Origin: an uncultured Candidatus Saccharibacteria bacterium
GTDB taxonomy: Bacteria; Patescibacteriota; UBA1384; DTJR01
Length of the DNA stretch: 61,892 bases
NCBI GenBank assembly: GCA_964580065.1
Contig: CAZOJE010000004.1
Span: 1-61,892, forward strand
Direction of reading: 5' to 3'
A program made the translations under genes and the position numbers. Within the stretch, counting starts at the first letter, position 1. Every line of letters starts with the position of its first letter. Under the pieces are notes generated by a model. That model did not search any database. It was not told the DNA's origin and saw only the letters and a program-made list of their open reading frames with translations. This document shows, piece after piece, positions 4,281-30,483 of the stretch.

Positions 4281-7200
4281 ATGGGGGAAGAAAAGGACTT
4301 AGGCCTAAAAGTCAAAGAAACTAAACCGGGCAAAAACCAGCCGGATACTTCGAGCGTAGATTCGGACGTAGCAGAAAGGGATACTGCGGAGATTGAAATT
4401 CTGGAAACTCCAGATACTGGAGAAGATGGTTTTCGGCAATATTGTCGATCACACTTTGAGCAAATCTTTGACACGAGTGCCGAAGACCATCAGACCGAGA
4501 GAAGTTCTTTGCAACGCAATGAAATATGGGAGCTAGAAAAACAGGCCAAACAAGATTTTCAAATCAGAAATCCCCAAATTGCCCAAATTTTTCTCGAGGA
4601 ACTAATAAATTTTTCACTGGAAAAAATTCGCCAAGGATTGGCTGACAAGCTTGAACCTTTTGTAGAAAATATTTACAATTCCTATTTTTACATTTCGCCC
4701 AACATCTCAAATGATGCCTATTTTGAAGAAAAGCTTCGTTTAGCCGCTAAAATGATAAGTATTCCAGAACTAGAATTTCTTATTGGAAGAGATTCTGTCG
4801 GAGAAATCATGGTTGATATATCGTTTGGAACCGATAAAACAATCGAAATTATTATCCAGCGGATACTTACTTCACCGATTGATGAAGCAATTGCCATGAT
4901 CCAAATGATTAGAAATGCGGCAGTTCAGGGGCGTAATATGGGCGACTTCACTTTTGAAGGCATCGAGCGTCTTGAAAAAATTGTGGCTGTCGTTCAAGAA
5001 GGTTATTCTTCTCGTCTTGTCAAATACAGCTGTGACATTTGCCTCGAACAAATTGAAAAATTGTGGAATGAGGATTTTTCTCAAAGTACTCGCGAAAGAG
5101 AATCGATTGAGCAGAGACGATTGAGCGACGAAATCCTCTCCAAAGTCGAGCTCGACCCCTCTTTGCAACGGCCCATTATTATTAAGGTTGCTGAAGATTT
5201 TGTTGCTGCCCTAGACCGCAACATGCTACCGATAAACTATGGCAAAATTGATTTTAAATTACTTGAAGAATCTGATCCTGCCATCAGCGCTCAAACTATC
5301 TACGAACTCGAAGAAATGCTTGAAATAGCTCAAAGAGGATATAAGACCAACCTTCATTCTCTCTTGGATTTAATTCAAACAAGAGTTGTCTCTGGAATTC
5401 TAGGCCATCAGGCAAGCCGTGAGGAAACAGCCAAATTTCTTTCGCAAAATTTCGATTTTTTCCCAGAAGCAAAATTTTTAGAATTGCTGGAGGCAGATCA
5501 AAAAATTCGTTCTTTTTGGGACACGGTCTCCGAGAGATATCTTCTCGCCTACTTGGAGGCAGAAGATAAAAATAAGGCAATTTCGGAAAAAGCGATCGAG
5601 TACTATTCCAAATGGCTTGCCGAATTCGCCACCAAAAAAAACAATGGGCTTTCCCCTGTAAAAAGCGATAAATTTTTTAAGTATCAAAAAGAGGGAAATC
5701 AGGAAGGGGCTTTTTCTATTGCGCAAAACAACGCTGATTTTTTAGCGTTCCTTCAAGAAAATGAATTGCTTCTAGACGCCAACAATAACGACGTTTCAAA
5801 TTTAATCAGTTATTTTGGCGAAGTTGAACGGCAGCATGATAGAAACAAAAAAGAGGCCAACGATTCTGCCGAAGAATATATTAAAACATTAAAAGCATCT
5901 CACGCGAAATATGCTGATTTGCTGATACTGTACGACGAAATAATTCAGATAAAATTGCCGGAGATTCTCTCCAAATTGCTCGAAAAATGTCTTCAGAGCC
6001 AAAAAGAAGCCGCTCAAACCGTTAAACTTAATCGAATTGAGGCCGTTGACTTAGACAAAGGAATAAACCCTTTTGGCAAAAATCAGGAAGAATATGATTT
6101 TCTAAAAGTTCTCTGGACACCCGGAATGATCAGAAAAATCAACCTTGAACTAAACGGGGTCGACCAAACATGGCCCGGCCAGGATCCTGAAGGTTCGTAC
6201 GTTGACATCAGAGACCTGAACGTTGCCTCTCAAGTTCAGCTACTGCGCTTCTTGATGTCTTCTCCTGATGAAACTTTTGATCAGCTCCAAGATGTCCTGC
6301 GGAAAAACCAAGACTTTGCTCAACAAATTCTGCAAAGCTTTCTCTCCTGTAGCGAAGATATGGGGCAAGGGCAAAAAATTATTGAAATCGTTCAAACCAT
6401 CGGCCCTGACTCGCGAATAATCTTTGAAAAATACAGCGAAGTTGTCGAAAGAATAGCCAAAATTGAACAGTTTCTCCAAGATAACTTTTCACCAGAGTCT
6501 GCCATCGACAGTCAATCCGTTGTTCGAGAATTGCTGACCGAGGCAAGAAACAGCATTCTTTCTTTCGACGTTTATAATAATCGCGAGATTTTCTTTAAAA
6601 AAATCGAAGATCTTAACGTAAGTCTGCTCACCCTCAAAGCCACCTTTTTATACTGTAAAAAGTCGGGGATTCTACCAAAACGTGAAGAAATTCTCCTCCA
6701 AGAAACAGTCGTTTCGTCTGGTCAGGAAATACCTGAAGAAGAAAAAGACAAAATGCGCGAAATCGCCAAGAAAAATTGGCAAGAAATATCTGAATCAATC
6801 TATCGAGTAGTAGCTGAATATCTCGAGAAAGGATTGGCCGATCCAAACAATCGCTTTTATCGAACAAAATATGATGGCAGAATAATCGCCTTTCAGCAGT
6901 TCACTCCCCAGCCCGACGGCTCCCTGTACGCCTCTTCTAACAACATTAACCCTGACATTCGCGGAGCCGGTCTCAACACCGCTATAAATGCTGAAATTTT
7001 AGCCAAAGAAGCCGAAAGTGCCCCTGTTAGGGCAGACGTTTGGGCCGCCAACCGTGTTTTTCAGCATTATTTAGCCGGAGATGGTTTTGTGGCCTGCCAG
7101 TACCATGAAGATTTTCACGGCACTGGCGAATCGTTTTTCGGAATGCTCTTAGACAAGAAAAACAGGGTAATTAAGGTTGATAAGAGCGAAACCGTTAAAA

Positions 7201-7364
7201 TGGCCTTTGATCCGTCCGATCACGGTACTTTGGAACAAATTGGGCGAATGTTTGAACAGGGTTATGTTATGACCGCCGTCTCCTTCGATAAAAAAACGGC
7301 TACTTTAGCCAGGGCCGAAAAAGTCAGCTCTTGGTTCCTGTCTCTTCCGCCGAATTCCAAATAA
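4281..7364 (+). CDS. Large (1027 aa) acidic, mostly helical hypothetical protein with a possible C-terminal GNAT-like acyltransferase fold
   Basis: The ORF is long, uninterrupted and has host-like AT-rich composition. The C-terminal 200 aa (IAFQQF...NPDIRGAGLNTAINAEIL...FVACQY) loosely resembles GNAT motif A. Nothing else was recognised. Confidence 0.7.
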   Translation: MGEEKDLGLKVKETKPGKNQPDTSSVDSDVAERDTAEIEILETPDTGEDGFRQYCRSHFEQIFDTSAEDHQTERSSLQRNEIWELEKQAKQDFQIRNPQIAQIFLEELINFSLEKIRQGLADKLEPFVENIYNSYFYISPNISNDAYFEEKLRLAAKMISIPELEFLIGRDSVGEIMVDISFGTDKTIEIIIQRILTSPIDEAIAMIQMIRNAAVQGRNMGDFTFEGIERLEKIVAVVQEGYSSRLVKYSCDICLEQIEKLWNEDFSQSTRERESIEQRRLSDEILSKVELDPSLQRPIIIKVAEDFVAALDRNMLPINYGKIDFKLLEESDPAISAQTIYELEEMLEIAQRGYKTNLHSLLDLIQTRVVSGILGHQASREETAKFLSQNFDFFPEAKFLELLEADQKIRSFWDTVSERYLLAYLEAEDKNKAISEKAIEYYSKWLAEFATKKNNGLSPVKSDKFFKYQKEGNQEGAFSIAQNNADFLAFLQENELLLDANNNDVSNLISYFGEVERQHDRNKKEANDSAEEYIKTLKASHAKYADLLILYDEIIQIKLPEILSKLLEKCLQSQKEAAQTVKLNRIEAVDLDKGINPFGKNQEEYDFLKVLWTPGMIRKINLELNGVDQTWPGQDPEGSYVDIRDLNVASQVQLLRFLMSSPDETFDQLQDVLRKNQDFAQQILQSFLSCSEDMGQGQKIIEIVQTIGPDSRIIFEKYSEVVERIAKIEQFLQDNFSPESAIDSQSVVRELLTEARNSILSFDVYNNREIFFKKIEDLNVSLLTLKATFLYCKKSGILPKREEILLQETVVSSGQEIPEEEKDKMREIAKKNWQEISESIYRVVAEYLEKGLADPNNRFYRTKYDGRIIAFQQFTPQPDGSLYASSNNINPDIRGAGLNTAINAEILAKEAESAPVRADVWAANRVFQHYLAGDGFVACQYHEDFHGTGESFFGMLLDKKNRVIKVDKSETVKMAFDPSDHGTLEQIGRMFEQGYVMTAVSFDKKTATLARAEKVSSWFLSLPPNSK

Positions 7365-8169
7365 ATTCAAAAATTGATCTTTGGATCTCACAAATTGTGG
7401 CATCTTCAATAATTATACCCATCGCAATCCCGGGTTTTAAGGTGTGAAGAGCGTATTTATTGTCATAAATCTGAATGCTAGTGGCAAAATCCGAAGGTTT
7501 CAGCTTGGCTATCCTAATCTCGGTTAGCCCTTCGAGACTCCCACCTTGATACCTTTGGCAATATTTACGGGTAAAGGGGCTATCGGGAAAAATCACCCTC
7601 TTTTTGATATTCAACATTTTTCTTTGTTTCAGGTAACGTTCATTTTCGGCATGGAGAAATTTTTCCAAGGTTAAGGGGTCGATTATCTGGATTATTTCCG
7701 TTTTTGCCGTTAAGGTGTCGTTCATCATTCGGCGCGCCCCTTCTTCTCCTTCAAAAACCTTAACACCGGGTTTGTGATAGGAGAGATTATAGGTTGATAA
7801 GATAGCCGACATCGCGCCTGAAAGCTCCTTTTTAACCTGTGTAAGCTCCTTGGTACGGTTTTCAACATATTCATCGAGCTTTCCAGGGTGCTCCAGCTTA
7901 AACCGTTTCCAGCCATTTGTGGCGGTTTCTTCCACTAATCCTTTTTTGATTAAGGAGTAGATCTGGTTATAGCCATCACCACGCTTAAGGTTTGCTAACC
8001 TGATTATCTCACCCGCCCCTAGTTCGCCTTTTTCAAGCAAAATCATAAAAATCACGGCCTCTTTTTCACTCAATCCTGCTCGACTTAGAAGCTCGCTGTA
8101 ATGAACTTTGCTAACGCTGGCGGCGGTAGGTCCGTGTGTTTTTGACAATTTTGTTTGCGTTTTTTTCAT
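7324..8169 (-). CDS. TrmB-like winged-helix transcriptional regulator
   Basis: The N-terminal wHTH (LSEKEAVIFMILLEKGELGAGEIIRLANLKRGDGYNQIYSLIKKGLV) is followed by a C-terminal domain of about 170 aa, the typical TrmB-family architecture. It converges on the 1027-aa gene with a 41-bp overlap. Confidence 0.7.
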   Translation of the reverse strand: MKKTQTKLSKTHGPTAASVSKVHYSELLSRAGLSEKEAVIFMILLEKGELGAGEIIRLANLKRGDGYNQIYSLIKKGLVEETATNGWKRFKLEHPGKLDEYVENRTKELTQVKKELSGAMSAILSTYNLSYHKPGVKVFEGEEGARRMMNDTLTAKTEIIQIIDPLTLEKFLHAENERYLKQRKMLNIKKRVIFPDSPFTRKYCQRYQGGSLEGLTEIRIAKLKPSDFATSIQIYDNKYALHTLKPGIAMGIIIEDATICEIQRSIFEFIWNSAEETGTKS

Positions 8170-8176
8170 TGTGAAT

Positions 8177-8218
8177 ATTGTAATATTTTTTGCTTATTTT
8201 GTCAATATTTTTTGACAA
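8177..8218 (-). promoter_or_regulatory. Sigma70-type promoter of the TrmB-like gene (leaderless) with an overlapping palindromic operator candidate
   Basis: On the - strand the promoter reads TTGACA (8200-8205), a 17-nt spacer, then TACAAT (8177-8182), with the ATG 7 nt downstream and no SD. A perfect inverted repeat, ttgtcaa-N6-ttgacaa (8199-8218), covers the -35 element. Confidence 0.6.
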
Positions 8219-8332
8219 CTTTTTGCGAAAATTTATAAATATATGGTTAAAATAGTTTATTCGTCTCCGTAAAAATCAAAGAGGTGAAAAATATAATATG
8301 AGCGTGTGGTTTGCATAGTTTGACAAAAACCC

Positions 8333-8361
8333 TTGACAAATTTACCGGCATTTGTTATAGT
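8333..8361 (+). promoter_or_regulatory. Near-consensus sigma70 promoter with no ORF downstream
   Basis: It reads TTGACA (8333-8338), a 17-nt spacer, then TATAGT (8356-8361). The supplied track shows no + strand ORF of 60 aa or more for about 580 nt downstream, and no ATG lies near the predicted start. Confidence 0.6.
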
Positions 8362-8367
8362 ACGACG

Positions 8368-9499
8368 TTACGCTGAAAGTTCAGCCAAACAAAACGGCAA
8401 ACCGCAAGCGCAACAATCGTACCTTACAAGTTATACACTCCTTCGGCCGGTGATCTTGAATAAAGATAGTCGGCCGTTGAGGAGGGGCAAAGATTTGTAA
8501 GAAGAATTTTGACAATAAGGGCCTGAAGAACGATACCGGTTCTATCAGGTTTCGGGGAAACTAATAAAAGTTTCCTTTGACTTACAAAAAGAGAGGTTAC
8601 GCCGAACGTTAAAAAACGATCTCGCGTAACCAGCCCGGACGGTTTCTATATATAATATACGAAATCGTCTACAAGGGCCTGTAAGCTCTTCTAAGGGGTC
8701 GTATTGCTCCCCTGCCGTAAAAAGCAAATGTAATACAAAGTTGCTGTCTGATTACCCTAGCGGTGATTCGGCAGCAGTCCAAGTCTCTCTTTGAGTGGTT
8801 TATTTAAGGAGGGACGTCCATAAAGGCGGCTGGTTAAGTTAAAAGCAAAACCAGCCGCTCTATGGGCGAAAAGCCCTAGAGTTTGCTCATTGGCGCTCCA
8901 TTAGGGGCCGTCAATGAGTAACGCTTGTCCGGAAGCTAAAGCCCGGCATGCGTCCTCCATTAAGGAGGATGCATGACCGGGCCCGGAATAGCTGGGTGGG
9001 GTGGCCCTTCCGCGGACCCCATTCAGTGAAAAAGGTGAAATCGGCCGGCAAAAGCCGAGCCGATAACCGCCAACGTGCGCTCAAAAGAGCGCACCGCGGA
9101 AGGGCCGGGTCAGTTCAGCGGGAGCTGACTCGGTGTTACACATTCACCCCACTTGCCGCCGTTATTAATGGCGCCAAGTGGGGCATCCCGCTCCCAGGGA
9201 GACTCTGCTTCGGCAGAGTCTCCCTAAGACTTTACAATTAGACGAGATGAGTTGAGCCGGATTGAACAATCCGACTTTATCGTGTCGGGTGCTAATTGCA
9301 TTTCGGCAATATAAGGAATCTGCTTCGGCAGGTTCTGATTGTTTGGATTTATTTGTTTCTGATTCCGACTGTCAAAAAAACAGTAGAAACTTTCGAAGAT
9401 GGAATTTATTTCCAATCGGGAAAGGTGAAACAGAAACAGTGCGGCACGAGAGCTGGTTTATTTGAAATTCGAATAAACTGGCTTCGTGCCGTTTGTGTT
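8368..9499 (+). ncRNA. Candidate large (about 1.1 kb) structured non-coding RNA of unassigned class
   Basis: The region is bounded by the promoter at 8333-8361 and the terminator at 9442-9499. It has no credible ORF despite a GC-rich core. It is packed with long, near-perfect hairpins, often with UUCG, GAAA or AAAA loops:
- ggcggctggtt..aaccagccgc (8825-8859)
- ctctatgggc-gaaa-gccctagag
- gcccggcatgcgtcctcc-atta-ggaggatgcatg.ccgggc (8941-8981)
- gggagactctgc-ttcg-gcagagtctccc (9197-9224)
A 13-bp long-range helix, ggcccttccgcgg (9003-9015) with ccgcggaagggcc (9094-9106), encloses two AAAA-loop hairpins. Confidence 0.45.
9442..9499 (+). terminator. Intrinsic terminator closing the candidate ncRNA
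   Basis: A long hairpin, cggcacga..tggtttattt..aaataaactgg..tcgtgccg (9442-9491), is followed by tttgtgtt. Confidence 0.55.
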
Positions 9500-9990
9500 A
9501 AAAAGCCCAAAGCGAGTTTGGTAAGAGCGACTAAAATTTAGCGGACATTCGAATTTGTGGCCTATGCGGTGATCGATCCGGCCGTCCTTGGCGAGGATAC
9601 GCGCGAGCAAATTGCGCGCTGTCTCTCGTCGGGGATGACCGAACCACTAATCTAGGGGCCTCGGCAAGTGGGTTTGGCACAGAAAGATCCAGCCCACCTC
9701 CAATATAACCCTGCACGACGGGTAGATCGTGCGGTCCAAGCTTGCGGACCTAAGTGGGGACCAACATATAAGCCAACCTTGATGGCAAGGAGTGAAATTG
9801 TTGGCGAGACCGCAAAAAGCAAAGTTCCAGGTCGCCTTCAGGTGACCTTAATCAGGGCCGGTATAAACCCCGGCCCTCCACTCTAAGTACAGCAGAAGAA
9901 GTTCGCGAATTGTTTCGTGATTTTCTCTGTCGTACTAGATCGTAGCTTAAAAGCGCGGTCAATCGTTATGCCAAAAAGGAGGGATACCAA

Positions 9991-10473
9991 ATGGCAGATA
10001 CGCCCTTCCTCGGGCGGCTGGCGGGGGGAGAGGCGGTCTACGACCGCTTCAACTCCCACCTCCACCCGGGGGTGGTCGAAATCCTGCCCGAGGCGCTGGC
10101 GCAAGTCAATGCTAACGGCAGGCAGTTTCTGGTCGAGGAGGCGGTTTTTGACCACCCGATCGGCCAGACGATCTGCGTCGCCACTGGGGCCGGCGATCAG
10201 GTTGTTTACGCCCAGCGCCCCAAGCGTGCTGGCCTCTCCAGGTTCGTGAGCAATCGCGAACCGGAGGAGAGCTCCAGCGTTACCGTGATCCTCAAGGCGG
10301 GGGGTCGCGGTGAGTATGTTCTGATCACCGCCTTCGTCGGGGCGCCGGCGCCGCCGGAGCCCTGGGACAGGAACGCCACCGAGCAATCGGTGCCGTTTTG
10401 GTCAACTCACGCCCTCTGTTGGGGCGCCGAGGAGACCATCCCAGGCACCGAGACGCCGGAGTGCCCCTGGTAG
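9991..10473 (+). CDS. Hypothetical protein (160 aa), GC-rich, no family recognised
   Basis: A strong SD (aaaaaggaggg) lies about 7 nt upstream of the ATG. The gene has the same orientation and composition as the downstream AAA+/VWA genes. The antisense ORF 9883..10386 looks like a GC-rich artefact. Confidence 0.6.
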   Translation: MADTPFLGRLAGGEAVYDRFNSHLHPGVVEILPEALAQVNANGRQFLVEEAVFDHPIGQTICVATGAGDQVVYAQRPKRAGLSRFVSNREPEESSSVTVILKAGGRGEYVLITAFVGAPAPPEPWDRNATEQSVPFWSTHALCWGAEETIPGTETPECPW

Positions 10474-10649
10474 TTTGTCTTTCAAGCTGACCTGCAAATT
10501 CACCGAGAGAGGCGGGTCAGCGCTTCTCTCCATGGCTGCCGTAAAGGTGATCCGCGGCCGACAAAAACGCGGGCCTCGCAAGGCGTTATCCGCCCCTTAA
10601 AGAAGGCGGGTGATGGCGCTAAAGAGGGAAAAAGAAGGGAGGCCCTAAA

Positions 10650-11726
10650 ATGGGTCTCTACGAGAAGATTCTGGCGGCTTTGTCCGCCAAGTTCGTACGG
10701 TGCGAGGAGATCGCCCGTATTCTCGCGCTGGCTGTTGCCTCAGGCAGGAACGTCCTGCTTTGGGGCCCCGGCGGGCATGGCAAGTCGGAGATGGTCGCGG
10801 CGGCTCTCGAGGTCGTCGCGGCCGAGACCGAAGTCTTCGTCCAGTCCTTCGGTGAGGGCATGGACGAGGCCACCCTCTGGGGTGGCCTGGACTTTGCTGC
10901 TCTGGAGGGCGAGAAGGAGCTCCGGTATCATCCGGAAAACTCCTTCCTCGCCAAGCGCTTCGCCGTTTTCGAAGAGGTGTTTGATGCGCCAGCGGTCGTA
11001 CTGCTTGCGCTGAAGGACACGCTCACTGCGCGCCGCTTGCGAAAAGGCGCACAGAGCTTCCCGATGACCACTCGGGTCGTCATCGGGATCACGAACCGTG
11101 ACCCGGAGGAAGTCGCTGATCTGGGACCGGCTGCTGCCGCCCTGATTGAGCGGTTTCCCCTCCAGCTCCATGTTCGCTGGCCGTCGTATAAGGCCAGCGA
11201 TTACAATTCCATGTTCGCTAAGGTCGCGCCGTCACTCCCCGGCGCTGACCTTAATGGCTCGTGCGGAGTGCTCGCCGAGCTGATCGCCAAAGCCGGCGAG
11301 GGAGATAGCCCCATCTCCCCCCGGAGCGCCGTGTACGCGCTCGGGGTAGTCAAGGCCGCGGCCGCGTTGCGCGGAGACGGCCAGGTTCACAAGGAGGACC
11401 TGGTTGACCTGCGCTTCATCGACGGCCTCGAGGGATTGGCGGATAATATCCGCCAGGAACTCGATCAGGCTTTCGAACGAGCGGCCGCCGAGGGGCGGCT
11501 CAAGGAGGCGGAGCGCAGGCTTCAGAGCCTCCTCGGCGAGTACGGGCAGGCAGACAGCCCAATCAAATGTCTGCAGGCGGCCAGGCGTTTTCTCGCCTTC
11601 CAAGACGAGGTCGCTAACCTGGCCGTGACCGACGGCCTGACCGACCGCCGGAAATCGCTGCGGGAGACCGCGGCGACTAAGGCGGCCGAGGCGCAAGCCA
11701 AGGCCATGGAAACGACCCGCATCTAG
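10650..11726 (+). CDS. MoxR-like (AAA_5-type) AAA+ ATPase with C-terminal coiled-coil extension
   Basis: Walker A is VLLWGPGGHGKSEM and the Walker B-like segment is RFAVFEEVFDA, followed by ALKDTL..R...VVIGITN. The SD gaagggagg lies upstream of the ATG. Confidence 0.75.
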   Translation: MGLYEKILAALSAKFVRCEEIARILALAVASGRNVLLWGPGGHGKSEMVAAALEVVAAETEVFVQSFGEGMDEATLWGGLDFAALEGEKELRYHPENSFLAKRFAVFEEVFDAPAVVLLALKDTLTARRLRKGAQSFPMTTRVVIGITNRDPEEVADLGPAAAALIERFPLQLHVRWPSYKASDYNSMFAKVAPSLPGADLNGSCGVLAELIAKAGEGDSPISPRSAVYALGVVKAAAALRGDGQVHKEDLVDLRFIDGLEGLADNIRQELDQAFERAAAEGRLKEAERRLQSLLGEYGQADSPIKCLQAARRFLAFQDEVANLAVTDGLTDRRKSLRETAATKAAEAQAKAMETTRI

Positions 11727-11747
11727 CGGGAGAAAGGAGGCGGAAGC

Positions 11748-13157
11748 GTGTCTTACACCTTCCGCACATCACCTCCCGCCACCTACCTCCCGCCGACGGC
11801 GGAGGAGATGCGGGTAGCGGCCGATCGTGTCGAGCTGAAAGGTTTCTCGCGCGACTTGGTCGCCGATCTGTGCAACCTGGCCGCGGGCGGGGTTGTTAAC
11901 CCCCCGTCGGCCTATCGCGCCGAAGTGACGCGGCGAGCAGAGGAGCAACTGCCAGCTCCTAACTCGAGCAACCAATGGCAGATTTCGAAGCGCGATAGCA
12001 AGGGCAAAAAGCAGACCGCCTATACTACGTCCCGCCTTGAGGCGGTCACCGCCAACGCCGAGGAAACCATGAGGTACCACCAAAATGTCTGCGATTTTCT
12101 GCAGGCGGTGGACCTTTCGGCCTTCCCCGGCACCTCGCCCCTTGAGCAGGCGATGAGTTTGCTCAAACTCCTGTCCAAGAAGCAAGGAGGACAGGGCGGC
12201 GGTGAGGGTGGCGAACCGCTTCCGATCTTCCAGGAGAGCGAGCGGCCGGAAGGTGTGGCCGAGTCGCTCGAGGACACCATGGATATGGTGGACTCACTCT
12301 CGGAGGAAGAGCAAGATATGCTCGACCCCGAGGGTCAGAACCACGAAATTGAGTCGGAGGAGAGCGATGGTCAACGTACCGGCCATAAGTCGCTCGACCG
12401 GCTCAAGGTCGCCGAAGACCTGGTCGAGGGATGTGATAAGCGGGTGATGCTCGACATCTCCCGTACCCTCGATCAGTTCACCAAGCTGCAGGTCCGTCGC
12501 CAGCGCAAGCTGGAAGCGGACCCGGCTGGTGATGAAGTCCGATCGCGGCCGATGCGCCACCTTGGGGAATTGTCCCGGGTGGCCCCGTCAAGCTGGGCAC
12601 TGCGCCAGGAGGCGCCTTCGTACTTCTTGTACAAGGCTGTCTCCGGACAGCTGCCCGTCCGCGAGCGCGTCACGAGGATTGAGCGCCGACAGGCGATCTT
12701 CATCCTCGTTGACGGCTCCGGCAGTATGCGCGGCCGGAAGCACTGGAAAGCGAGCGGGGTTGTTATGAACCGCTTGAAGGCAGTGCTCTCCGGCGATGCC
12801 GAGGTCTGGGTGAGTGTTTTTGACACCCAGCTCGGCAAGACCCAACATGCCGGAACTCCGGAGGAGGCCCGCGAGCTGATCAAGAAGTTCGCTGCGCGTA
12901 ACTTCTCCGGCGGTGGCACGGACATTGCCGCATCCATCCGCGCCGCCCACAAGTACATCGAGGACGCGATCAAGAGCGGGGCAGCATTGTATCGCCCCGA
13001 GATCGTCGTCCTCACTGATGAGGACTCCTCCGTGGCAAACCTCCGCAAGGAGGAGCTCCCGGGCACGCGAGTGCACGGGATCGCCATGGGGGTCACCAAC
13101 CCCAAACTGGTGGAGTTCGCTAAGTCCACCGGCGGGGTTGGCATCGACAAATTCTAG
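11748..13157 (+). CDS. VWA-domain protein with MIDAS motif and an acidic central linker (partner of the AAA+ ATPase)
   Basis: A GTG start follows aaaggagg by 8 nt and lies 21 nt after the AAA+ stop. The C-terminal VWA domain reads AIFILVDGSGSMRG...FSGGGTDIA...IVVLTDED (DxSxS...T...D MIDAS). The acidic stretch is DSLSEEEQDMLDPEGQNHEIESEESD, as seen in CobT/BchD/NorD-type partners. Confidence 0.8.
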   Translation: MSYTFRTSPPATYLPPTAEEMRVAADRVELKGFSRDLVADLCNLAAGGVVNPPSAYRAEVTRRAEEQLPAPNSSNQWQISKRDSKGKKQTAYTTSRLEAVTANAEETMRYHQNVCDFLQAVDLSAFPGTSPLEQAMSLLKLLSKKQGGQGGGEGGEPLPIFQESERPEGVAESLEDTMDMVDSLSEEEQDMLDPEGQNHEIESEESDGQRTGHKSLDRLKVAEDLVEGCDKRVMLDISRTLDQFTKLQVRRQRKLEADPAGDEVRSRPMRHLGELSRVAPSSWALRQEAPSYFLYKAVSGQLPVRERVTRIERRQAIFILVDGSGSMRGRKHWKASGVVMNRLKAVLSGDAEVWVSVFDTQLGKTQHAGTPEEARELIKKFAARNFSGGGTDIAASIRAAHKYIEDAIKSGAALYRPEIVVLTDEDSSVANLRKEELPGTRVHGIAMGVTNPKLVEFAKSTGGVGIDKF

Positions 13158-13836
13158 TCCGTAAGGGCGAAAGGAGGTGGCCGCGTGATACGCGGACCGC
13201 CCAGTTCGGGTCCAAGGGGTAGGACCGAGTCAAAATAATTACCCCCGATGGCTAGGCATCGATCACCTGAGCAACCCCTGATACCTCCCTAGAACGGTCC
13301 AAAGGCAGGGGCGTAACCCACCACGCACGGGGGCACACCGGTCTGGAATTATCCCGAGGTCTCACAGCGTGAGATCGTTGAAGGAGAAATTCTCGGTCAG
13401 CCGGTGACCTGTTAAACATGAAACAGGTAATACAAAATTCATGTCCGTAACAGATATTTAAGTGTTTTCATCTGCTACGAGTAGCCTCGAGAATAAAGAG
13501 GCAAAAACATTCGGGTCAGTCTAAGCCGGTAACGGCTGGCCTGTACTGCTACCGGTTCCAGGTGACGCCTTTCGGGGCGTCACCGCGCAATATTCCAGGC
13601 CGCGACTTAGGTCGTGGCATCATATCAGGGTGGTGAAAGCAATTTCATCACCCTAACCTCTTCGTGAAACTATAAGTTTCTTTTAGAAATTTAAGCTCCC
13701 CGAAGAATTCGCGGGATATCCTTAACCCTTGGGAGGATTAAAGATAAGAGTTGTAATGCTGTGGGCGGGGGATGATGCAGGAGGAAGTCGATTTCCTCTT
13801 GCAGATCTCCCAAGGCCTGAAAAGAGGTGCTGGGAG

Positions 13837-14067
13837 ATGTTTAGCCCACTCGGTCCGCTCCGCCTTTCGCCCGAGGCGGAGCAAGAACGCCGGAAGGAGG
13901 TCCTGATCAAGTTCGCCCGGCAGGTTTGCCGGGCGGAGGGGAGGGATCCCAATTCCCTCCCCAAAGCAGAACTCCTCCGCCTGTTAAAGCAGGTGGAGGA
14001 TAAGTTCGCCGACGTAGAACTCGGCGAACTTATAGCGTTTGCGGACATGCTCCGCAAACGCCGCTGA
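13837..14067 (+). CDS. Small hypothetical protein (76 aa from the preferred start), GC-rich
   Basis: The supplied ORF is 13729..14067 with a TTG start. Third-position GC rises sharply only after the ATG at 13837, which is preceded by agaggtg. A strong terminator follows immediately. The start is uncertain (alternatives at 13756 and 13729). Confidence 0.45.
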   Translation: MFSPLGPLRLSPEAEQERRKEVLIKFARQVCRAEGRDPNSLPKAELLRLLKQVEDKFADVELGELIAFADMLRKRR

Positions 14068-14072
14068 TCCCG

Positions 14073-14122
14073 GGGCGTGCTGGTTGAGGATTCGTCCGAA
14101 ACCAGCACGCCCTTTTGTTTTT
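14073..14122 (+). terminator. Strong intrinsic terminator ending the GC-rich cassette
   Basis: A 13-bp perfect stem, gggcgtgctggtt (14073-14085) with aaccagcacgccc (14100-14112), is followed by ttttgttttt. Confidence 0.8.
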
Positions 14123-14192
14123 GCCAATAAGCCCGTCGTATCCAACCTTTAAAATCGGCCAAATTACGCTAAAAAAATCAAATGCAAAAATT

Positions 14193-14212
14193 TGCTATAA
14201 TATAATCAAATG
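14193..14212 (+). promoter_or_regulatory. Extended -10 promoter giving a leaderless or near-leaderless mRNA
   Basis: TGcTATAAT spans 14193-14201. The ATG at 14210 is 8 nt after the -10 element, with no SD. Confidence 0.45.
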
Positions 14213-14755
14213 AAAAAAAAGCCAGAAACAAAAGACGCAAAAACCAACTCAAAGGACAAAAACGATACCAAAAAAGCGGTAAATATTTTTGATGAAAACG
14301 CAATTTTACGTTGGAAAGCCCCCGATTACTATACTTTTGAAAAAAGTCCCCTCTGGTCTTTGGCGATTGGTTTGCTGGCAATTATTTTGTCGTTAGTTTT
14401 AATTTATACTTCAAACTATTTTCCGGTGATTATTATAATTTTAGCCGTTATTGTGACCTTTCAAGTGGCGCACGAGAAACCAAAAACGCAAGAATTTGCC
14501 ATCGACAAAGGCGGTGTTTTGTCGCGTGAAACTTATTTTCCTTTTTTAGAATTGAAATCGTTTTGGATCGCCCGCCACGACCGAAAAACTGTTCTTTACC
14601 TCGAACCGGTTAATCGAATAAAAAGCTCTATTGTCATTCCCCTAGGTAAACAAAACTCAACCGAGGTGAGAAATTTCCTTTTGCAATACCTGCCCGAAAA
14701 GCTTGAGGGCGGCGAACTTATTAGCGACAAATTGATTAGAATTTTTAAATTATAA
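14210..14755 (+). CDS. Membrane protein with two TM helices and a C-terminal soluble domain (possibly bacterial PH-like)
   Basis: The 181-aa ORF is AT-rich like the host. It has a lysine-rich N-terminus and then two hydrophobic helices (LWSLAIGLLAIILSLVLIY and FPVIIIILAVIVTF). Confidence 0.7.
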   Translation: MKKKPETKDAKTNSKDKNDTKKAVNIFDENAILRWKAPDYYTFEKSPLWSLAIGLLAIILSLVLIYTSNYFPVIIIILAVIVTFQVAHEKPKTQEFAIDKGGVLSRETYFPFLELKSFWIARHDRKTVLYLEPVNRIKSSIVIPLGKQNSTEVRNFLLQYLPEKLEGGELISDKLIRIFKL

Positions 14756-14854
14756 GATCATAAAAATTGCCCTAATTGAAAAAACATTAAACGGCAATTA
14801 AGTTTGTCGTTTTTTAAATAGAAATAAAAAAACACTAAATATTCAACCCACTAA

Positions 14855-14904
14855 AACCGACGAAGGGCGGTGGACGGATCGCTTTCGCGACCCGTCCACC
14901 GCCC
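14855..14904 (-). terminator. Terminator hairpin 3' of the 345-aa GC-rich gene
   Basis: A 13-bp perfect stem, gggcggtggacgg (14865-14877) with ccgtccaccgccc (14892-14904), is followed on the - strand by a weak U tract (cgguuuuag). Confidence 0.55.
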
Positions 14905-14912
14905 CGAACTCA

Positions 14913-15950
14913 CTACAGTTGGGCTTTCTCCATCAGAGCCCGTACCACGGTGCGATTCTGGAAGAGAAGAAGCCCCCTTTCAGCGGAGCCATTGGGATAT
15001 TTCCCCTCGTCCTGCAGAACGGTGAAAAGCCCCGATTGGTCCATCCTCGTCTCCAGCCCAGAGAACGAGAAGGGGGGCTCAACTCTTAATCTCAAAGACT
15101 CCATAGTCCCTTCGGAAAACAATCTTCCGAAGCCGACCACCCTATTTTCCCCTTGAGGAGTGAAGACACAAAAGGCAAATTCCTTTGGCAGAGAGGGGGA
15201 GAGATGCTTGTTCTTAGTTTTGGCCCAGATAGAGCCAATCTCCTCTCGGCACCATTCCTCCTCTTGGGCGATAACAACAAGTTTGTCCGTGAAGTCCTTT
15301 GGGACAAGCACAAAACGGAAGAAGTCGTCAACGAACTCTTGAGCAAGGATCTCACAGAGCTCGTTTTCAACTCGCCATTCGATCGGCTCAATCGTAAACA
15401 ACCCCCGTGGGTCATTCACGGTTTTGGGTATCAGCAACGATCTTAGCGCGTAAGCCACCTTCGTCTTAATGGCGTAAGCACCAAGCTCCGCCATTGGTTG
15501 AGGAACCGGCAAGCACCCCCCGCGTAACAGGGCGCCGATAAATGCGTCCAAAACATCTCGCGCCCATTGGGCACCCCCAAACGCTAAGGATATAAAATCC
15601 GACCAGACGCCCGCCGGAGCCATCGCCAGTGTCTTTTTGGCGATTTCGAAACGCGTCACGGAGTCAACGAGGTCCATCGCCTCGCTGACCCACTTCACAA
15701 CTCCTGGATTGTGATAACCCAGAAAAGATTCCGGCCAGAGACCGCCATACTTGCCTTCCAGCAGCTCTCTGGCAACATAAGCCCAGATACGCTTCTGACA
15801 CATCAGAGACTGGGCGAGGCAGAAGAAAAGATCTTCTCTCTCCCTTTCTCCCCGCTCTTTGTCTGCCGTGACAATTGCCCACATTCGAGCAAACTGCTCT
15901 GGGTGATTGCCGATAACATGAAAAAGCTCCTCCCGATCTCTTTCTTTCAT
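14913..15950 (-). CDS. Hypothetical protein (345 aa), GC-rich orphan
   Basis: This is a long ORF with aaggagg 6 nt upstream of the ATG and its own terminator. No motif was recognised. AT-rich sequence flanks it on both sides. Confidence 0.65.
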   Translation of the reverse strand: MKERDREELFHVIGNHPEQFARMWAIVTADKERGEREREDLFFCLAQSLMCQKRIWAYVARELLEGKYGGLWPESFLGYHNPGVVKWVSEAMDLVDSVTRFEIAKKTLAMAPAGVWSDFISLAFGGAQWARDVLDAFIGALLRGGCLPVPQPMAELGAYAIKTKVAYALRSLLIPKTVNDPRGLFTIEPIEWRVENELCEILAQEFVDDFFRFVLVPKDFTDKLVVIAQEEEWCREEIGSIWAKTKNKHLSPSLPKEFAFCVFTPQGENRVVGFGRLFSEGTMESLRLRVEPPFSFSGLETRMDQSGLFTVLQDEGKYPNGSAERGLLLFQNRTVVRALMEKAQL

Positions 15951-15987
15951 TCCGCTTCCTCCTTATCAGCTGCAAATCAAGGTGCAT

Positions 15988-16006
15988 GTGATCTACAAAA
16001 GATCAC
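15988..16006. promoter_or_regulatory. Perfect 7-bp inverted repeat (operator candidate) upstream of the 345-aa gene
   Basis: gtgatct-N5-agatcac lies 38-56 nt upstream of the start codon at 15950. Confidence 0.35.
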
Positions 16007-16142
16007 GAAAAAATAGCATTTTCAATGCCATAAATCAATGGCGGCTCTTTAAATTATCGGTTAATTCTGCTTTAAATATAGATAGCGTTTCACAAAAATG
16101 GAGGCAAGCGACCTAACCATTTTGTTAATTTTGGAGGTTATT

Positions 16143-17069
16143 ATGGCTAAAGTGCTTGTAACTGGTGGGGCCGGTTTTATTGGCTCAAATTTAGTTGATG
16201 CGTTAATTGAAAAAAATCATGAGGTTGCCGTGGTTGATAATCTTTCAACCGGCCGCCAAGAAAATCTTAATCCTCAAGCACATTTTTACAAAATAGACAT
16301 CACCGACCAAGAGCCATTGAGCGAGGTTTTTGCCAAAGAAAAACCCGAGATTATTTTTCATCTTGGCGCTCAAGCCAGTGTCAACACTAGCGTCGAAAAT
16401 CCTGCTCTCGATATCAGCGTCAACGTGATCGGCACGGTTAACTTATTAGAGCTGTGCCGCCAACACAACATTAAAAAAATTATTTTTTCCTCAACCGGCG
16501 GCGCCATTTACGGCGACCAAGCGCCACGACCCACAAACGAAACCGCCGAGCAGCTGCCCGCTACTCCCTACGGTATGGACAAGCTTGCCGCCGAAAAATA
16601 CATCAATTTTTATCAAAACAACTATGATCTAAAACCGGTTATTTTACGCTACGCCAACGTTTATGGTCCGCGGCAAAACCCGCACGGCGAAGCCGGTGTT
16701 ATCGCCATCTTTACTGACCGAATGCTGAAAAATACACCTTACAACCTCTATGGCGACGGCGAGCAAACCCGCGATTTTGTTTTTGTCGGCGATGTCGTTC
16801 GGGCAAATTTAGCCGCCTTGGAATATAATAAAACAGGCATATTTAATATTGGCTCCGGTCGCGAAACGTCCGTCAATCAGGTTATCGAGTTGCTGCAAAA
16901 ATACTCCGGCAGTAGCTTACCGCCAACAAAAATGCCCGCCAAACTTGAACAAAGAAATAGCTGTCTTGACAGCTCGCTGGCCCAAGAAAAACTTAATTGG
17001 CAACCATCAGCCGATATCGAAGAAGGCCTGAAAAAAACAATCGAATTTTACAAAAATTCCCTTAAATAA
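16143..17069 (+). CDS. NAD-dependent epimerase/dehydratase, UDP-glucose 4-epimerase-like
   Basis: The ATG at 16143 is preferred, with GGAGGT 6 nt upstream. The N-terminus is MAKVLVTGGAGFIGSNL (Rossmann GxxGxxG). The extended-SDR YxxxK is present (PYGMDKLAAEKY). Confidence 0.85.
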   Translation: MAKVLVTGGAGFIGSNLVDALIEKNHEVAVVDNLSTGRQENLNPQAHFYKIDITDQEPLSEVFAKEKPEIIFHLGAQASVNTSVENPALDISVNVIGTVNLLELCRQHNIKKIIFSSTGGAIYGDQAPRPTNETAEQLPATPYGMDKLAAEKYINFYQNNYDLKPVILRYANVYGPRQNPHGEAGVIAIFTDRMLKNTPYNLYGDGEQTRDFVFVGDVVRANLAALEYNKTGIFNIGSGRETSVNQVIELLQKYSGSSLPPTKMPAKLEQRNSCLDSSLAQEKLNWQPSADIEEGLKKTIEFYKNSLK

Positions 17070-17074
17070 ATATT

Positions 17075-17764
17075 ATGAAATTAGCCATTGTTATTCCCGT
17101 TTTTAATGAGGGGGTCGTAATCCGCGAACTAATTGAAAGTTTGCCTAAAAAAATCGATGGGATTGATAAAATTGTCGTCATTGCCGTCAATGACGGTTCA
17201 ACTGATAATTCTTCAGACGAAATCCGCAAAACCAAGGCCCTGCTAGTCGAGCACCCCATCAATATGGGCGCCGGTGCCGCCACCGTAACTGGTTTGGAGG
17301 CGGCCAGTAAGATCGGCGCCGATTTAGCCATCACCCTAGACGGCGACGGTCAGCACGACCCCAAAGACATTCAAAAACTGGTCAAGCCGATTTTACAAAA
17401 CAGAGCCGATTTAGTTATCGGCGTGCGCTCTCAAAAATCCAGCCAAATGCCCGCAATCAAAAAAATTGGCAACGCCGGCTTAAATCTGATAACCTATGCT
17501 TTATCCCGCACTTGGACAACCGATTCCCAATCCGGCTTTAAATGTTTTTCGCGCGAAGCAATTGACAAGCTTGAAGTCGAAGGTTTCGGCTATGAATTTT
17601 GCTCCGAAATCATTATGGAAGCAAAACGCAAAAATATTCGCATCGCCGAAGTGCCGATTAGTGTAATTTATTCTGAATATTCCAAGAAAAAAGGCCAAAG
17701 TATTTTTAACGGCACCAACATCGTATTAAAATTATTATTTAAAAAACTAACAAAATCATTATGA
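17075..17764 (+). CDS. GT2 glycosyltransferase, polyprenol-phosphate sugar synthase (DPM1-like)
   Basis: It contains IVIPVFNE....VNDGSTD...DGDGQHDP, the typical GT-A/GT2 DxD architecture. Confidence 0.85.
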   Translation: MKLAIVIPVFNEGVVIRELIESLPKKIDGIDKIVVIAVNDGSTDNSSDEIRKTKALLVEHPINMGAGAATVTGLEAASKIGADLAITLDGDGQHDPKDIQKLVKPILQNRADLVIGVRSQKSSQMPAIKKIGNAGLNLITYALSRTWTTDSQSGFKCFSREAIDKLEVEGFGYEFCSEIIMEAKRKNIRIAEVPISVIYSEYSKKKGQSIFNGTNIVLKLLFKKLTKSL

Positions 17765-18105
17765 CAATCATTGCCAAAATCCTCGCCGCTTTTTTTGCGA
17801 TCGTTGTAATTTCCCGCTCGGTCACCGATTATCGCAGCAAAAAAGAATCTCTAACTATGACTGCTTTTTGGATCATTGTTTGGCTGGCCATTGCCGCGAT
17901 CGCTTTTTTCCCAACTTTAGTCGACGAAGCCATTAGATTGTCCGACGACAGCCGCTCGGGACTTGGCACAGTTTTTGGCATGGGTCTTGTGTTTGTCCTT
18001 TTCATCAGCTATCGCATTTACGTCAAAGCCAATCGAGTGGAAAAAGCTTTGGCAAAACTTGCTAGGGATTTTTGTCTTTCAAAGATCAAAGATGAAAAGA
18101 AATAA
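17761..18105 (+). CDS. DUF2304-like small membrane protein
   Basis: The 114-aa protein has 3-4 TM segments. Its start overlaps the GT2 stop in an ATGA, the pairing commonly seen for DUF2304. Confidence 0.65.
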   Translation: MTIIAKILAAFFAIVVISRSVTDYRSKKESLTMTAFWIIVWLAIAAIAFFPTLVDEAIRLSDDSRSGLGTVFGMGLVFVLFISYRIYVKANRVEKALAKLARDFCLSKIKDEKK

Positions 18106-29828: not shown

Positions 29829-29913
29829 CTAAATCACCTCTCCAGATTGACGGCACGTTTTATGCGCTCCAATGCAAGCGGAAAAACTTACTTTCCGCCT
29901 TTGGTTCTCCCTG

Positions 29914-30483
29914 CTAGCTCGGTCGATACGAGCCGAAACAGACCCGGGCACAGGGGAGAATCATACGCCGGTGATTCTCGATTATACCCGGAACTTGCCC
30001 GCTGCAGGCCGCATCGAGATCGACCCATTTCAGATCGCCAATCTCGGGGACATTCTCGATGCGCGACAGCATTACTACCTGAACAACGCTGCCGCGTTCT
30101 TCCACAATCGGGTCCTGCAGGAACGCAAGAGTTGGCTCGACCAGGTTTGCGCCGAGGAGTTCTGTCTTGGCAAGGCGCTCGAGCGCAGACCAGTAGCTCT
30201 CGCCAGGTCTCAAGAACGTTCCCGGACAGTGCCACTGGCCAGGATAGGCCGTGTCGTTGTCGGCACGGCGCTTGAGCAAGACTTCGATCGGATACTCACC
30301 GCTGACGACAACCAGCTCAATACAGCAGCTGACTGTCTTCTTGGCCACTGCGTCAAACAGCTCTGTCCCCAGCGGCGTGTCAGGCAGTGAGTTGAGAAGA
30401 GCTGCCGCCACTTTCCGCCGCTCCTCTTCATCCATTTGCAACAGTTTCTCTACCAGCTCCATCAGACTGGCATCCATTCGCAC
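29914..30483 (-). CDS. Nudix-fold protein with a degenerate Nudix box and an N-terminal helix resembling an 'addiction module component' antitoxin motif
   Basis: PGTFLRPGESYWSALERLAKTELLG aligns to GX5EX7REUXEEXGU with RE->RL and EE->TE. The N-terminus LMELVEKLLQMDEEERRKVAAALLNSL resembles the L..ER..LA..LL.SL motif. The gene is GC-rich. Confidence 0.55.
   Translation of the reverse strand: MRMDASLMELVEKLLQMDEEERRKVAAALLNSLPDTPLGTELFDAVAKKTVSCCIELVVVSGEYPIEVLLKRRADNDTAYPGQWHCPGTFLRPGESYWSALERLAKTELLGANLVEPTLAFLQDPIVEERGSVVQVVMLSRIENVPEIGDLKWVDLDAACSGQVPGIIENHRRMILPCARVCFGSYRPS

Follow-up and report, generated by a model that had tools for sequence, protein, structure and literature searches.

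The closest described relatives of the locus reported here fall into two groups. In RavA-ViaA, NorQ-NorD, CbbQ-CbbO, CobS-CobT and BchI-BchD, an AAA_5/MoxR ATPase is paired with a partner protein in which a C-terminal VWA domain with a MIDAS site follows an acidic linker. In the MoxR-vWA ternary conflict systems (Kaur, Burroughs, Iyer, Aravind 2020, PMC7159879), a MoxR gene followed by a vWA gene is accompanied by a third conserved gene. Two further fields bear on the locus. In bacteria, hammerhead and twister ribozymes tend to lie close to one another and to specific (phage-related) genes for an unknown reason, and twister-sister was found by searching such ribozyme-cluster places (PMC10085705). 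RGPP and RAPP are the most robust ribosome arrest motifs among those refractory to EF-P, RDPP and RSPP being partly permissive; RGPP is also the most depleted tetrapeptide in many phyla, and RAGP is the motif of SecM (PMC12992588). Here, we analysed a 61,892-nt stretch of DNA from an uncultured Candidatus Saccharibacteria bacterium (the window), in which one locus joins three usually separate topics: a MoxR-VWA remodelling machine, candidate self-cleaving ribozymes and a candidate RGPP-type arrest peptide. Positions 8333-14122 probably form a conserved operon encoding a machine made up of a 160-residue protein (p160), a MoxR ATPase and a VWA adaptor, the long non-coding parts being cis-acting elements of the mRNA. 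Patescibacteria have tiny genomes in which few conserved gene sets are understood; this cassette is well conserved and oddly composed.

Four co-oriented open reading frames (ORFs) are listed on the plus strand of this block, at 9991-10473 (p160), 10650-11726 (MoxR), 11748-13157 (VWA) and 13837-14067 (76 residues). Strong Shine-Dalgarno (SD) sites precede the p160, MoxR and VWA genes alike, and the VWA gene starts with GTG 21 nt 3’ of the ATPase stop, with AAAGGAGG ahead of it. These three genes, their SD sites, the Walker A sequence and the MIDAS are as described in a first-pass annotation made from the letters alone, and the AAA+/VWA pair with acidic linker that it proposed was recovered by Pfam as bpMoxR/AAA_5 and VWA_CoxE/VWA_2. 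The 358-residue ATPase scores 57.1 bits against bpMoxR (PF20030; cut-off 27, E=1.7e-15) and 38.5 bits against AAA_5 (cut-off 22), and conservation across 47 homologues extends to its Walker A motif GPGGHGKS, the Walker B-like FEE and the TN and ERF motifs. With a score above the curated cut-off and with Walker A/B, sensor and arginine motifs intact, it is a MoxR-class ATPase, the nearest solved relative of which is RavA (E=3.2e-5). The 469-residue VWA protein matches its two Pfam families above their cut-offs at residues 307-430, and its MIDAS residues D322-x-S324-x-S326, T391 and D424 are invariant in 40 homologues, making it a bona fide VWA/MIDAS protein; homologues are 60-89% identical. It comprises a conserved N-terminal part of about 300 residues, an acidic disordered linker at about 150-215 and the C-terminal VWA domain (307-430). 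In the AlphaFold2 (AF2) model (predicted local distance difference test, pLDDT, 81), the N-terminal region is helical with two β-hairpins. Foldseek matched the VWA domain alone (probability 1.0, to many VWA domains, including that of NorD in the NorQD complex); the N-terminal ~300 residues had no Foldseek match and no PDB sequence match, and Pfam found no TROVE, DUF2828 or other RNA-binding domain in the protein.

To place these genes in context, 80 genome loci and 53 metagenome loci were fetched for comparison (numbered L001 onward). MoxR and VWA homologues are present in 77 of the fetched loci and p160 nearly always adjoins them where the contig extends far enough. Two gene orders are observed, p160-MoxR-VWA and MoxR-VWA-p160, and divergent bpMoxR and VWA genes also adjoin p160 in L041 and L047. 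The cassette is a three-gene operon that many Patescibacteria genomes share. A gene for a TrmB-family regulator lies divergently upstream of it in about 25 related loci; in the window this gene is at 7324-8169 on the minus strand (Pfam TrmB, E=4.1e-8), with GC content at third codon positions (GC3) like that of the host and about 32% identity between loci. TrmB is the likely regulator of the cassette. No conserved fourth protein downstream of the cassette was found in the related loci. Searchable literature held no description of the p160-MoxR-VWA association, of the p160 family or of the combination of elements described below, in keeping with the first-pass view that the association could not be placed in a described system; an earlier mention of these genes as "ribozyme-associated" in the original discovery papers is possible.

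Median pairwise identities are 56% for MoxR, 53% for VWA, 60% for p160 and 32% for TrmB. Over the 23 loci that carry all four genes, the identities of MoxR and VWA are correlated with each other (rho=0.75) and uncorrelated with those of p160 (rho=-0.01) and TrmB (rho=-0.07). Because the identities of the pair track each other and not those of p160 or TrmB, they suggest that MoxR-VWA has a partly separate history. TrmB identities may be saturated, and we treat the decoupling as unexplained. The same correlations hint at exchange of a MoxR-VWA module between lineages.

Given these genes, the cassette might encode an ordinary MoxR-VWA chaperone of the RavA-ViaA, NorQ-NorD or CbbQ-CbbO type, which would mature or metallate a distant client or p160 itself while the RNAs merely tune expression. 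RavA being the nearest solved relative of the ATPase, the presence of NorD among the generic VWA fold matches, and the intact MIDAS site and ATPase motifs all fit such a machine, as do NCBIfam matches to RavA, ViaA, CobT and BchD-like families. These matches are weak: the RavA-ViaA, NorQ-NorD, CobS-CobT and BchI-BchD equivalogs score 17-25 bits, far below cut-offs of 475-779. No nitric-oxide reductase (NOR), RuBisCO, cobalamin or chlorophyll gene lies in the window or in the neighbourhood of any related locus, and no respiratory gene lies near any cassette. The first-pass annotation had already noted that canonical clients were missing, and the prospect that it raised of ordinary CobS/CobT or NorQ/NorD genes in their canonical operons fails on both scores and context. 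The only constant partners of the pair are p160, TrmB and the RNA elements, and the N-terminal 300 residues of the VWA protein have no match. A role as an ordinary chaperone is thus distinctly unlikely.

We next consider the non-coding DNA. In blastn searches, the last 90-110 nt before MoxR are the only non-coding piece of the window recognised in distant loci. Iterated nhmmer yielded 69 copies of a motif, which among the matches listed lie just upstream of MoxR in both gene orders; they represent 47 distinct sequences, and 47 of 64 distinct MoxR 5’ regions carry one. In the window the motif spans 10507-10640 on the plus strand and is identified by nhmmer, by covariation and by weak matches to the twister-sister family RF02681. 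A 40-sequence alignment (A5) reveals a variable hairpin (10507-10530 in the window), an H-type pseudoknot (S1 10546-10548/10557-10559; S2 10551-10555/10569-10573; A-rich loop CCAACAAGA), and an outer 4-bp stem around a second stem and terminal hairpin, with an invariant GCGCU(C/A)AA. RNAalifold reports compensatory changes in 9 of 13 pairs. In this structure 95.4% of alignment cells are paired, versus 74% in shuffles and 42-52% in slid controls, and 141-142 cells show double changes versus 44 in shuffles; none of 500 shuffles was as good. A further pairing, between CCUGG (columns 39-43) and CCAGG (columns 75-79), was dropped, its registers being inconsistent by eye in individual sequences.

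The 3’ part of the motif resembles the twister-sister ribozyme. RF02681 was the best match when short stretches were scanned with Rfam, at 14.9 bits (E=1) for the window and 16.7 bits (E=0.32) for L037. Scores of this size are not significant by themselves; the aligned parts are precisely the outer stem and both conserved strands. In this register 96.9% of cells are paired (shuffles 74-77%). The window has P1 at 10574-10577/10624-10627, enclosing an internal loop L1 made up of GCAAGG (10578-10583) and GCGCUAAA (10616-10623). The active site in L1 of twister-sister is formed by G5-C6-A7-A8-G9(-G10) and (C58-)G59-C60-U61-C62^A63-U64 (PMC5660989). In the alignment, the 5’ strand of L1 (columns 74-79) reads G in 38, C in 39, any base, A in 31, G in 39 and G in 40 of the 40 sequences, and the 3’ strand (columns 116-122) reads C in 39, G in 40, C in 40, U in 40, C in 34 or A in 5, A in 40 and A in 40. 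L1 thus agrees with twister-sister in all but its last position (A for U), and P1 and P2 covary. The predicted cut lies between A10621 and A10622, 28 nt before the MoxR ATG. In human twister-sister-like ribozymes, P1-L1-P2 alone suffices for slow cleavage (PMC11620745). Because L1 matches, canonical features are missing and the human P1-L1-P2 cleaves on its own, we describe the 110-nt motif as a candidate ribozyme of twister-sister-like type to which a pseudoknot has been added on the 5’ side. Rfam 15 does not contain a pseudoknot-bearing motif of this kind, and searchable literature yielded none. Where the motif is missing, an alternative conserved element, GGGGACCCAAACC...CUUGCCCCUCCCCAGGGCAAGCCCAAUC..., precedes MoxR (L015, L019, L029, L106, L109, L113, L133, L146; about 170 nt before MoxR), mostly in loci of MoxR-VWA-p160 order; it has no Rfam match. 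A hairpin with an AACAAUC loop near the MoxR start codon is common to both classes of upstream element.

Ribozymes of a known class occur in relatives of the locus. Trailers after VWA are modular, their DNA being conserved within lineage groups, and the trailer profile consensus of one lineage contains CUGAUGAGUCC-AAAA-GGACGAAA. L037 carries a full-length type III hammerhead (RF00008, E=4.2e-6, 36.8 bits versus a gathering score of 48.5), and a covariance model (R1) built from ten copies gave 15 strong matches (E<=1.6e-7) in 11 distinct loci, and one weak match. Stems I, II and III all covary, so these are type III hammerheads; their scores stay below gathering because the stems are short. Two hammerheads flank the cassette in L102, and in L029 two separate MoxR from VWA and VWA from p160. 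Hammerheads of several lineages are preceded by a hairpin with the conserved loop UUCUCUAUAAAAAC (L110 3384-3412; equivalents in L037, L029, L032 and L137). Several lineages (L008 7658-7722; L022 5854-5918; also L028, L032 and L010) share a second conserved RNA motif of the form AAGGAGAUCGGCUG-[covarying stem]-UAACC-[stem]-AGAAAUCUCCUU, located 5’ of p160 at a distance of 90-340 nt; it was not found in the window and has no meaningful Rfam match. Narrow Rfam scans of two further conserved RNA blocks returned chance miRNA-like matches alone.

A third conserved element follows the last gene. In the window, an SD sequence GGAGG (13173-13177) precedes a 17-codon mini-ORF (13185-13238, plus strand, GTG start at 13185) that encodes VIRGPPSSGPRGRTESK and then stops. 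The peptide begins VIRGPP, the RGPP codons being at 13191-13202. Loci with the order p160-MoxR-VWA have an SD-led mini-ORF of the form M(I)R[G/D/A/S]PP 13-85 nt 3’ of VWA; in most MoxR-VWA-p160 loci it comes after p160, and in L023 it lies between VWA and p160. The peptides, read to their stop codons, include MIRGPP (L008, L131), MIRGPPQKR (L022), MRYIRAPP (L059), MSRAPP (L130), MARSPP (L148) and MKNRDPP (L028, L037). Such a mini-ORF is present in 24 of 43 distinct loci, versus a background of about 4 other pattern matches in 2.7 Mb scanned, both strands counted. Arginine is encoded by CGC, CGT, CGG, AGA or AGG and proline by all four of its codons; the conserved object is therefore the peptide. 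With R-[A/G]-P-P near the C-terminus of a small ORF and conservation at the peptide level, the mini-ORF is of the RAPP-like kind, and we consider it a candidate RAPP/RGPP-type ribosome arrest peptide. No conserved protein gene lies 3’ of it in the related loci. A second RGPP mini-ORF stands about 450-520 nt further downstream at L034 9507 and L051 9694 (LDRGPPEIEA, ending at its stop; MIRGPPFIDK...). An idea that the two gene orders might be circular permutations, derived from a circular RNA excised by ribozymes, was set aside, as the mini-ORF comes after the last gene, whichever that is.

The remaining flanks are long and structured. The 5’ leader at 9545-9990 (plus strand) is conserved with L147, the closest relative on the 5’ side (p160 88% identical), with a mean column identity of 90% over 9500-10000 and a folding z-score, calculated against dinucleotide shuffles, of -6.6. 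Conservation with L147 covers everything from 9545 onward and also 8321-8379 and 8494-8551. Between 8551 and the conserved leader lies a variable, lineage-specific part (8552-9544, plus strand), with no ORF of 100 residues or more and with the long perfect hairpins I2, I6 and I7. L147 is dissimilar to the window over 8552-9545, and the slot in L147 (5295-5777) holds a 160-residue ORF with a weak STIV_B116-like match; in L006 (6024-6401) and L012 (2955-3326) it holds bAvd/23S-rRNA-IVP four-helix-bundle genes. On the other side, the 3’ trailer (13239-13836, plus strand) is conserved to about 13600 with L149, the closest 3’-side relative (VWA 89% identical), relative to which the window has an insertion of about 35 nt at ~13346-13380 (alignment A8). 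At least two leader hairpins show compensatory changes, covariation in leader and trailer being drawn from one pairwise comparison each (L147; L149). The first-pass annotation had called 13158-13836 ORF-free and hairpin-rich; the hairpins stand (z=-6.1), and the conserved mini-ORF at 13185-13238 means that the stretch is not free of ORFs. Its proposal that the flanks are structured RNA is supported, as they are conserved, covary and fold better than shuffles. By blastn and nhmmer, the leader, the variable block and the trailer were found only in the same genome and in L147 and L149, and an nhmmer trailer profile from another lineage did not reach the window. Rfam searches of the window and 13 relatives, at gathering scores and at E up to 1, gave tRNAs alone and nothing in the flanks, and neither Rfam nor ARAGORN found a Y-RNA or tRNA-like partner.

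Could these flanking RNAs be the clients of the ATPase/VWA machine, in a ribonucleoprotein (RNP) of the Ro60-Y RNA or Rea1-pre-ribosome style? Both leader and trailer have strong structure and some conservation, the AACAAUC-loop hairpin before MoxR in both element classes could be a protein-binding site, and RNA phosphodiesterase-like domains, on weak evidence, are among the partners of p160. On the other hand, most of the leader and trailer is lineage-specific and cannot be aligned between groups, and L147, the closest relative, has a protein gene in place of one leader block. The conserved pieces, ribozyme cores by start codons and an SD-led mini-ORF, look cis-acting, and the VWA protein matches neither TROVE nor any other RNA-binding domain. 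The suggestion in the first-pass annotation that the client might be these RNAs gained no specific support, and we find it highly improbable. The 76-residue ORF that closes the block (13837-14067, plus strand) is doubtful or lineage-specific: it has no tblastn match in other genomes and no family match, as expected of the orphan it was first taken for, but it is probably not a conserved gene, nor a conserved component of the cassette, because an unrelated ORF replaces it in L149.

The composition of the block sets it apart from its genome. The first-pass annotation had remarked on a GC-rich block in an AT-rich genome, and indeed the block has 62-65% GC versus a genome background of about 42%, in an island extending over ~8801-14100. 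GC3 of the cassette genes is 77-82% versus 39-46% in adjacent genes, the excess lying at synonymous sites. Across relatives, cassette GC is about 10-25 points above that of the flanks in nearly every genome, and cassette GC3 exceeds that of the adjacent TrmB gene by 12-50 points. The steps in GC at ~8.8 kb and ~14.1 kb are sharp, as would be expected if a GC-rich foreign fragment had been joined to an AT-rich genome in a chimeric assembly, a risk that the first-pass annotation had flagged. Across these junctions, the window is matched at 100% identity by contigs of two other sequencing runs (L005 corresponds to window 6323-13947 and L004 to 10436-21726), and the arrangement of an AT-rich TrmB gene beside a GC-rich cassette recurs in more than 20 independent genomes. 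Each junction being independently spanned, a chimeric assembly is therefore very unlikely, to the point of being negligible. Elsewhere in the window, where the GC3 background is ~39-50, other ORFs of raised GC3 are found at 28842-30483, 399-1178 and 14913-15950, all on the minus strand: a 328-residue protein without Pfam match (GC3 74) and an adjacent NUDIX protein (67), a MobA-like NTP transferase (63), and a 345-residue protein without match just 3’ of the cassette (59).

The block is bracketed by transcription signals. A divergent promoter region at 8177-8361 contains two promoters that each match 11 of 12 consensus positions: that of TrmB on the minus strand (TTGACA-17-TACAAT, 8205..8177) and that of the cassette on the plus strand (TTGACA-17-TATAGT with a TG extension, 8333-8361), the latter within the segment 8321-8379 that is 82% conserved in L147. 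TTGTCAA/TTGACAA inverted repeats between them (D1 and I1, at 8198-8218 and 8320-8340) are candidate operators. At the other end, an intrinsic terminator (14073-14122, plus strand) consists of a stem-loop at 14073-14112 with 18-nt arms (I1: 14073-14090 / 14095-14112) followed by TTTTGTTTTT, in agreement with the terminator first proposed to close the block. Because a near-consensus promoter and this terminator bracket the block, the simplest reading is that 8333-14122 is a single transcription unit of ~5.7 kb. Beyond TrmB, about 12 loci encode a protein of 580-1030 residues (4281-7364, plus strand, in the window), the C-terminal part of which is conserved; this family gives a weak GNAT/acetyltransferase signal.

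The constant third protein, p160 (9991-10473, plus strand, 160 residues), was at first regarded as an orphan. It is not: it matches phrog_23674 (E=1e-21) and belongs to a large uncharacterised family. A word-indexed search returned more than 236 homologues at ~60% identity, mostly labelled Patescibacteria or candidate phyla radiation (CPR), and an exhaustive profile search gave 1300 clusters at 50% identity, 973 of them with E<=1e-10. Homologues are also found in jumbo phages such as GAP32, CBB, XbC2 and Astolliot, where they sit in tRNA-gene regions. Those of GAP32 (L001), Astolliot (L002) and XbC2 (L003) lie within tRNA-gene arrays; the Astolliot homologue adjoins an RNaseH-like protein, with a DUF2828/DUF7788 protein 4 kb away, and the GAP32 homologue has a generic AAA gene and one for an R2K ATP-grasp protein immediately upstream. 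The GAP32 neighbours were considered as MoxR/VWA homologues and rejected, as they are not homologous. On viral contigs no MoxR or VWA gene was found near p160 and the cassette is almost absent; nor did the cassette match phage records at the DNA level. A family of ~1300 clusters, with members in jumbo phages too, is without a fold assignment: the AF2 model of p160 (pLDDT 93.7) is mostly β, with ~13 short strands and 2 helices in 160 residues, and it had no significant Foldseek match in PDB or BFVD, no PDB sequence match and no Pfam match. OB-fold proteins are scattered among the insignificant Foldseek matches, which is only a hint. The structure comparisons recommended in the first-pass annotation hence succeeded for the VWA domain and failed for p160 and the VWA N-terminal region.

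Two features of p160 bear on its function. Firstly, C62, R76, R84, E123 and D126 are invariant in the alignment and H25, D69 and H140 invariant or nearly so, and because of this conservation they suggest an enzyme or metal site. Secondly, Patescibacteria p160 proteins carry a C-terminal tail, GTETxxCPW, which phage homologues do not have, and presence of the tail goes with a nearby MoxR (37 and 9 versus 14 and 28; odds ratio 8.2, p=1e-5). The MIDAS site of VWA domains characteristically binds an acidic residue. Since the tail tracks MoxR, and phage p160 is without tail and MoxR/VWA alike, these observations fit a partnership in which p160 engages the VWA MIDAS site through its tail. In addition, at least five loci (L047 4735-5949; L044 4759-6468; L038, L046 and L058) encode a protein of ~400 residues that contains a Csx3-like domain (PF09620, E=8e-6) and is either fused to p160 or next to it, and one p160 fusion, P0274, has a sub-threshold tRNA-ligase cyclic-phosphodiesterase match. 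These Csx3-like and phosphodiesterase-like fusions may serve as weak functional hints for p160.

Several of these properties would be expected of a conflict system of the MoxR-vWA ternary type, with p160 as sensor or effector and with ribozymes and GC content marking a phage or mobile origin. The ATPase belongs to bpMoxR, a family defined from MoxR-vWA conflict systems (PMC7159879); p160 has jumbo-phage homologues and, in some loci, a Csx3-like domain fused or adjacent to it; GC3 looks foreign in nearly every genome; the history of MoxR-VWA is decoupled from that of p160 and TrmB; and phage-related genes are where bacterial hammerhead and twister ribozymes cluster (PMC10085705). However, PADLOC returned nothing significant for the cassette proteins, and their neighbourhoods contain no VMAP, iSTAND, FtsH, β-propeller, effector domain or toxin-like gene. 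Typical defence islands also differ from the cassette in conservation and position, its proteins being unusually conserved (medians 53-60%) and holding one place beside TrmB across distant lineages. The near-absence of the cassette from viral contigs, and of MoxR/VWA from the surroundings of phage p160, likewise argue against a conflict system, which we regard as rather unlikely.

In the operon that we favour, a TrmB-controlled promoter would give rise to a highly structured transcript of ~5.7 kb. The twister-sister-like ribozyme would cut it 28 nt before the MoxR start, splitting p160 mRNA from MoxR-VWA mRNA. The p160 mRNA would then end in a 2’,3’-cyclic phosphate, with the ribozyme as its 3’ structure, and the MoxR-VWA mRNA would start with a 5’-OH and a short leader that retains the SD site, so that the two could be expressed and degraded independently; in other lineages, hammerheads would make further cuts. 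After the last gene, a ribosome would load on the SD-led mini-ORF and stall at R-G-P-P, where, as a 3’ roadblock or sensor, it would determine how stable the mRNA is or how the trailer folds. At the protein level, a hexamer of the ATPase, recruited via the VWA MIDAS site, would remodel a partner, the best candidate for which, as partner or adaptor, is p160 through its acidic C-terminal tail.

Alternatively, the p160-MoxR-VWA machine might itself act on translation or RNA, its substrates being arrested ribosomes or RNAs with ribozyme-type ends. The RGPP mini-ORF would then be a SecM-style "monitoring substrate" that reports machine activity through the retention or release of a ribosome at the 3’ end, and the ribozymes would delimit a MoxR-VWA module exchanged independently of p160 and TrmB. 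This role is raised because of the arrest ORF, by analogy with SecM, MifM and ApdA, the Csx3-like fusions and the phage homologues in tRNA arrays; we judge it unlikely.

A number of observations weigh against the operon with cis-acting RNA elements as set out above. Cleavage, stalling and transcript boundaries are here predictions from sequence. Concerning the ribozyme, the junction of twister-sister and its stem-loop 4 (SL4), conserved nucleotides of which dock on L1 (contacts T1 and T2), are missing from the motif, the Rfam model skipping the junction; RF02681 scores are 15-17 bits versus a gathering score of 34; the window has A, not the usual C, 5’ of the predicted cut; and 17 of 64 loci carry a different conserved element before MoxR. 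Hammerheads are not found in window 8000-16200, either by Rfam or by model R1 (both to E up to 1). As for the mini-ORF, 19 of 43 loci do not have it, the RAPP arrest peptides that have been tested are all much longer, and it closes the operon on the 3’ side where an arrest ORF would be expected ahead of the gene it regulates. The p160-MoxR rho of -0.01 fits poorly with tight co-evolution of direct partners, and this reading does not account for the GC3 excess. What is shown directly is the gene linkage, the conserved and covarying RNA motifs, the mini-ORF and the compositional anomaly.

How, then, does the locus compare with known systems? The cassette ATPase scores above the bpMoxR gathering threshold (57 versus 27 bits), as in the ternary conflict systems. 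It differs from these in that its third component is p160 and not VMAP, iSTAND, FtsH or a β-propeller protein, which leaves it outside that group as defined, in that no effector/EAD domains were found, and in its high conservation, fixed position and embedded ribozyme and arrest-ORF elements. Relative to the chaperone and chelatase pairs, it has no client operon, its VWA protein has a novel N-terminal domain, and p160 is constant. Ro60 (TROVE+VWA) with Y RNA and Rea1/Midasin (AAA_5 + MIDAS) also bring VWA/MIDAS and dynein-like AAA chemistry together with structured RNA or RNP, by analogy only: the cassette has no TROVE, no Y-RNA or tRNA-like RNA and no linked ribosome-biogenesis genes, and so is not of the Ro60/TROVE-VWA type. 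MoxR-VWA, the ribozymes and the arrest-type ORF are each a variant of something known; their combination was not found described.

The RNA elements show the same mixture of likeness and difference. The hammerheads of relatives have the type III core CUGAUGA...GAAA, with GUC, UUC or CUU cleavage triplets, and lie between or flank cassette genes, but their copies score below RF00008 gathering. The candidate ribozyme before MoxR shares with twister-sister (RF02681; 5Y87, 5T5A) an L1 of GCNAGG and GCGCU(C/A)AA, versus GCAAGG and GCGCUCAU, and an intergenic setting in a locus whose relatives also carry hammerheads, as where twister-sister was first found. It differs in being a single extended hairpin and not a 3- or 4-way junction, in having no SL4 consensus (its terminal loop is ACAAUNG or UAAUGAAG), and in having one extra bulged G and an attached, covarying 5’ pseudoknot domain. 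If the motif cleaves, the rare twister-sister class would be greatly enlarged and would gain a defined, recurrent gene context, one that bears on the open question of why bacterial self-cleaving ribozymes cluster near particular genes (PMC10085705). Finally, the mini-ORF resembles the arrest peptides SecM (RAGP), ApdA, ApdP and ApcA and the Streptomyces RAPP/RGPP upstream ORFs (PMC7897499, PMC10951233, PMC12992588) in its R-[G/A/D/S]-P-P, usually at or near the stop, in the SD of its own that each copy has, and in being conserved as peptide and not as RNA. Unlike them, it is just 6-9 codons long in most loci (17 in the window), has neither a signal nor a transmembrane segment, and is located between the last operon gene and non-coding RNA; known arrest peptides lie 5’ of a gene under their control. 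An RGPP ORF of six codons in such a 3’-terminal position would put the strongest stalling motif known to a new use.

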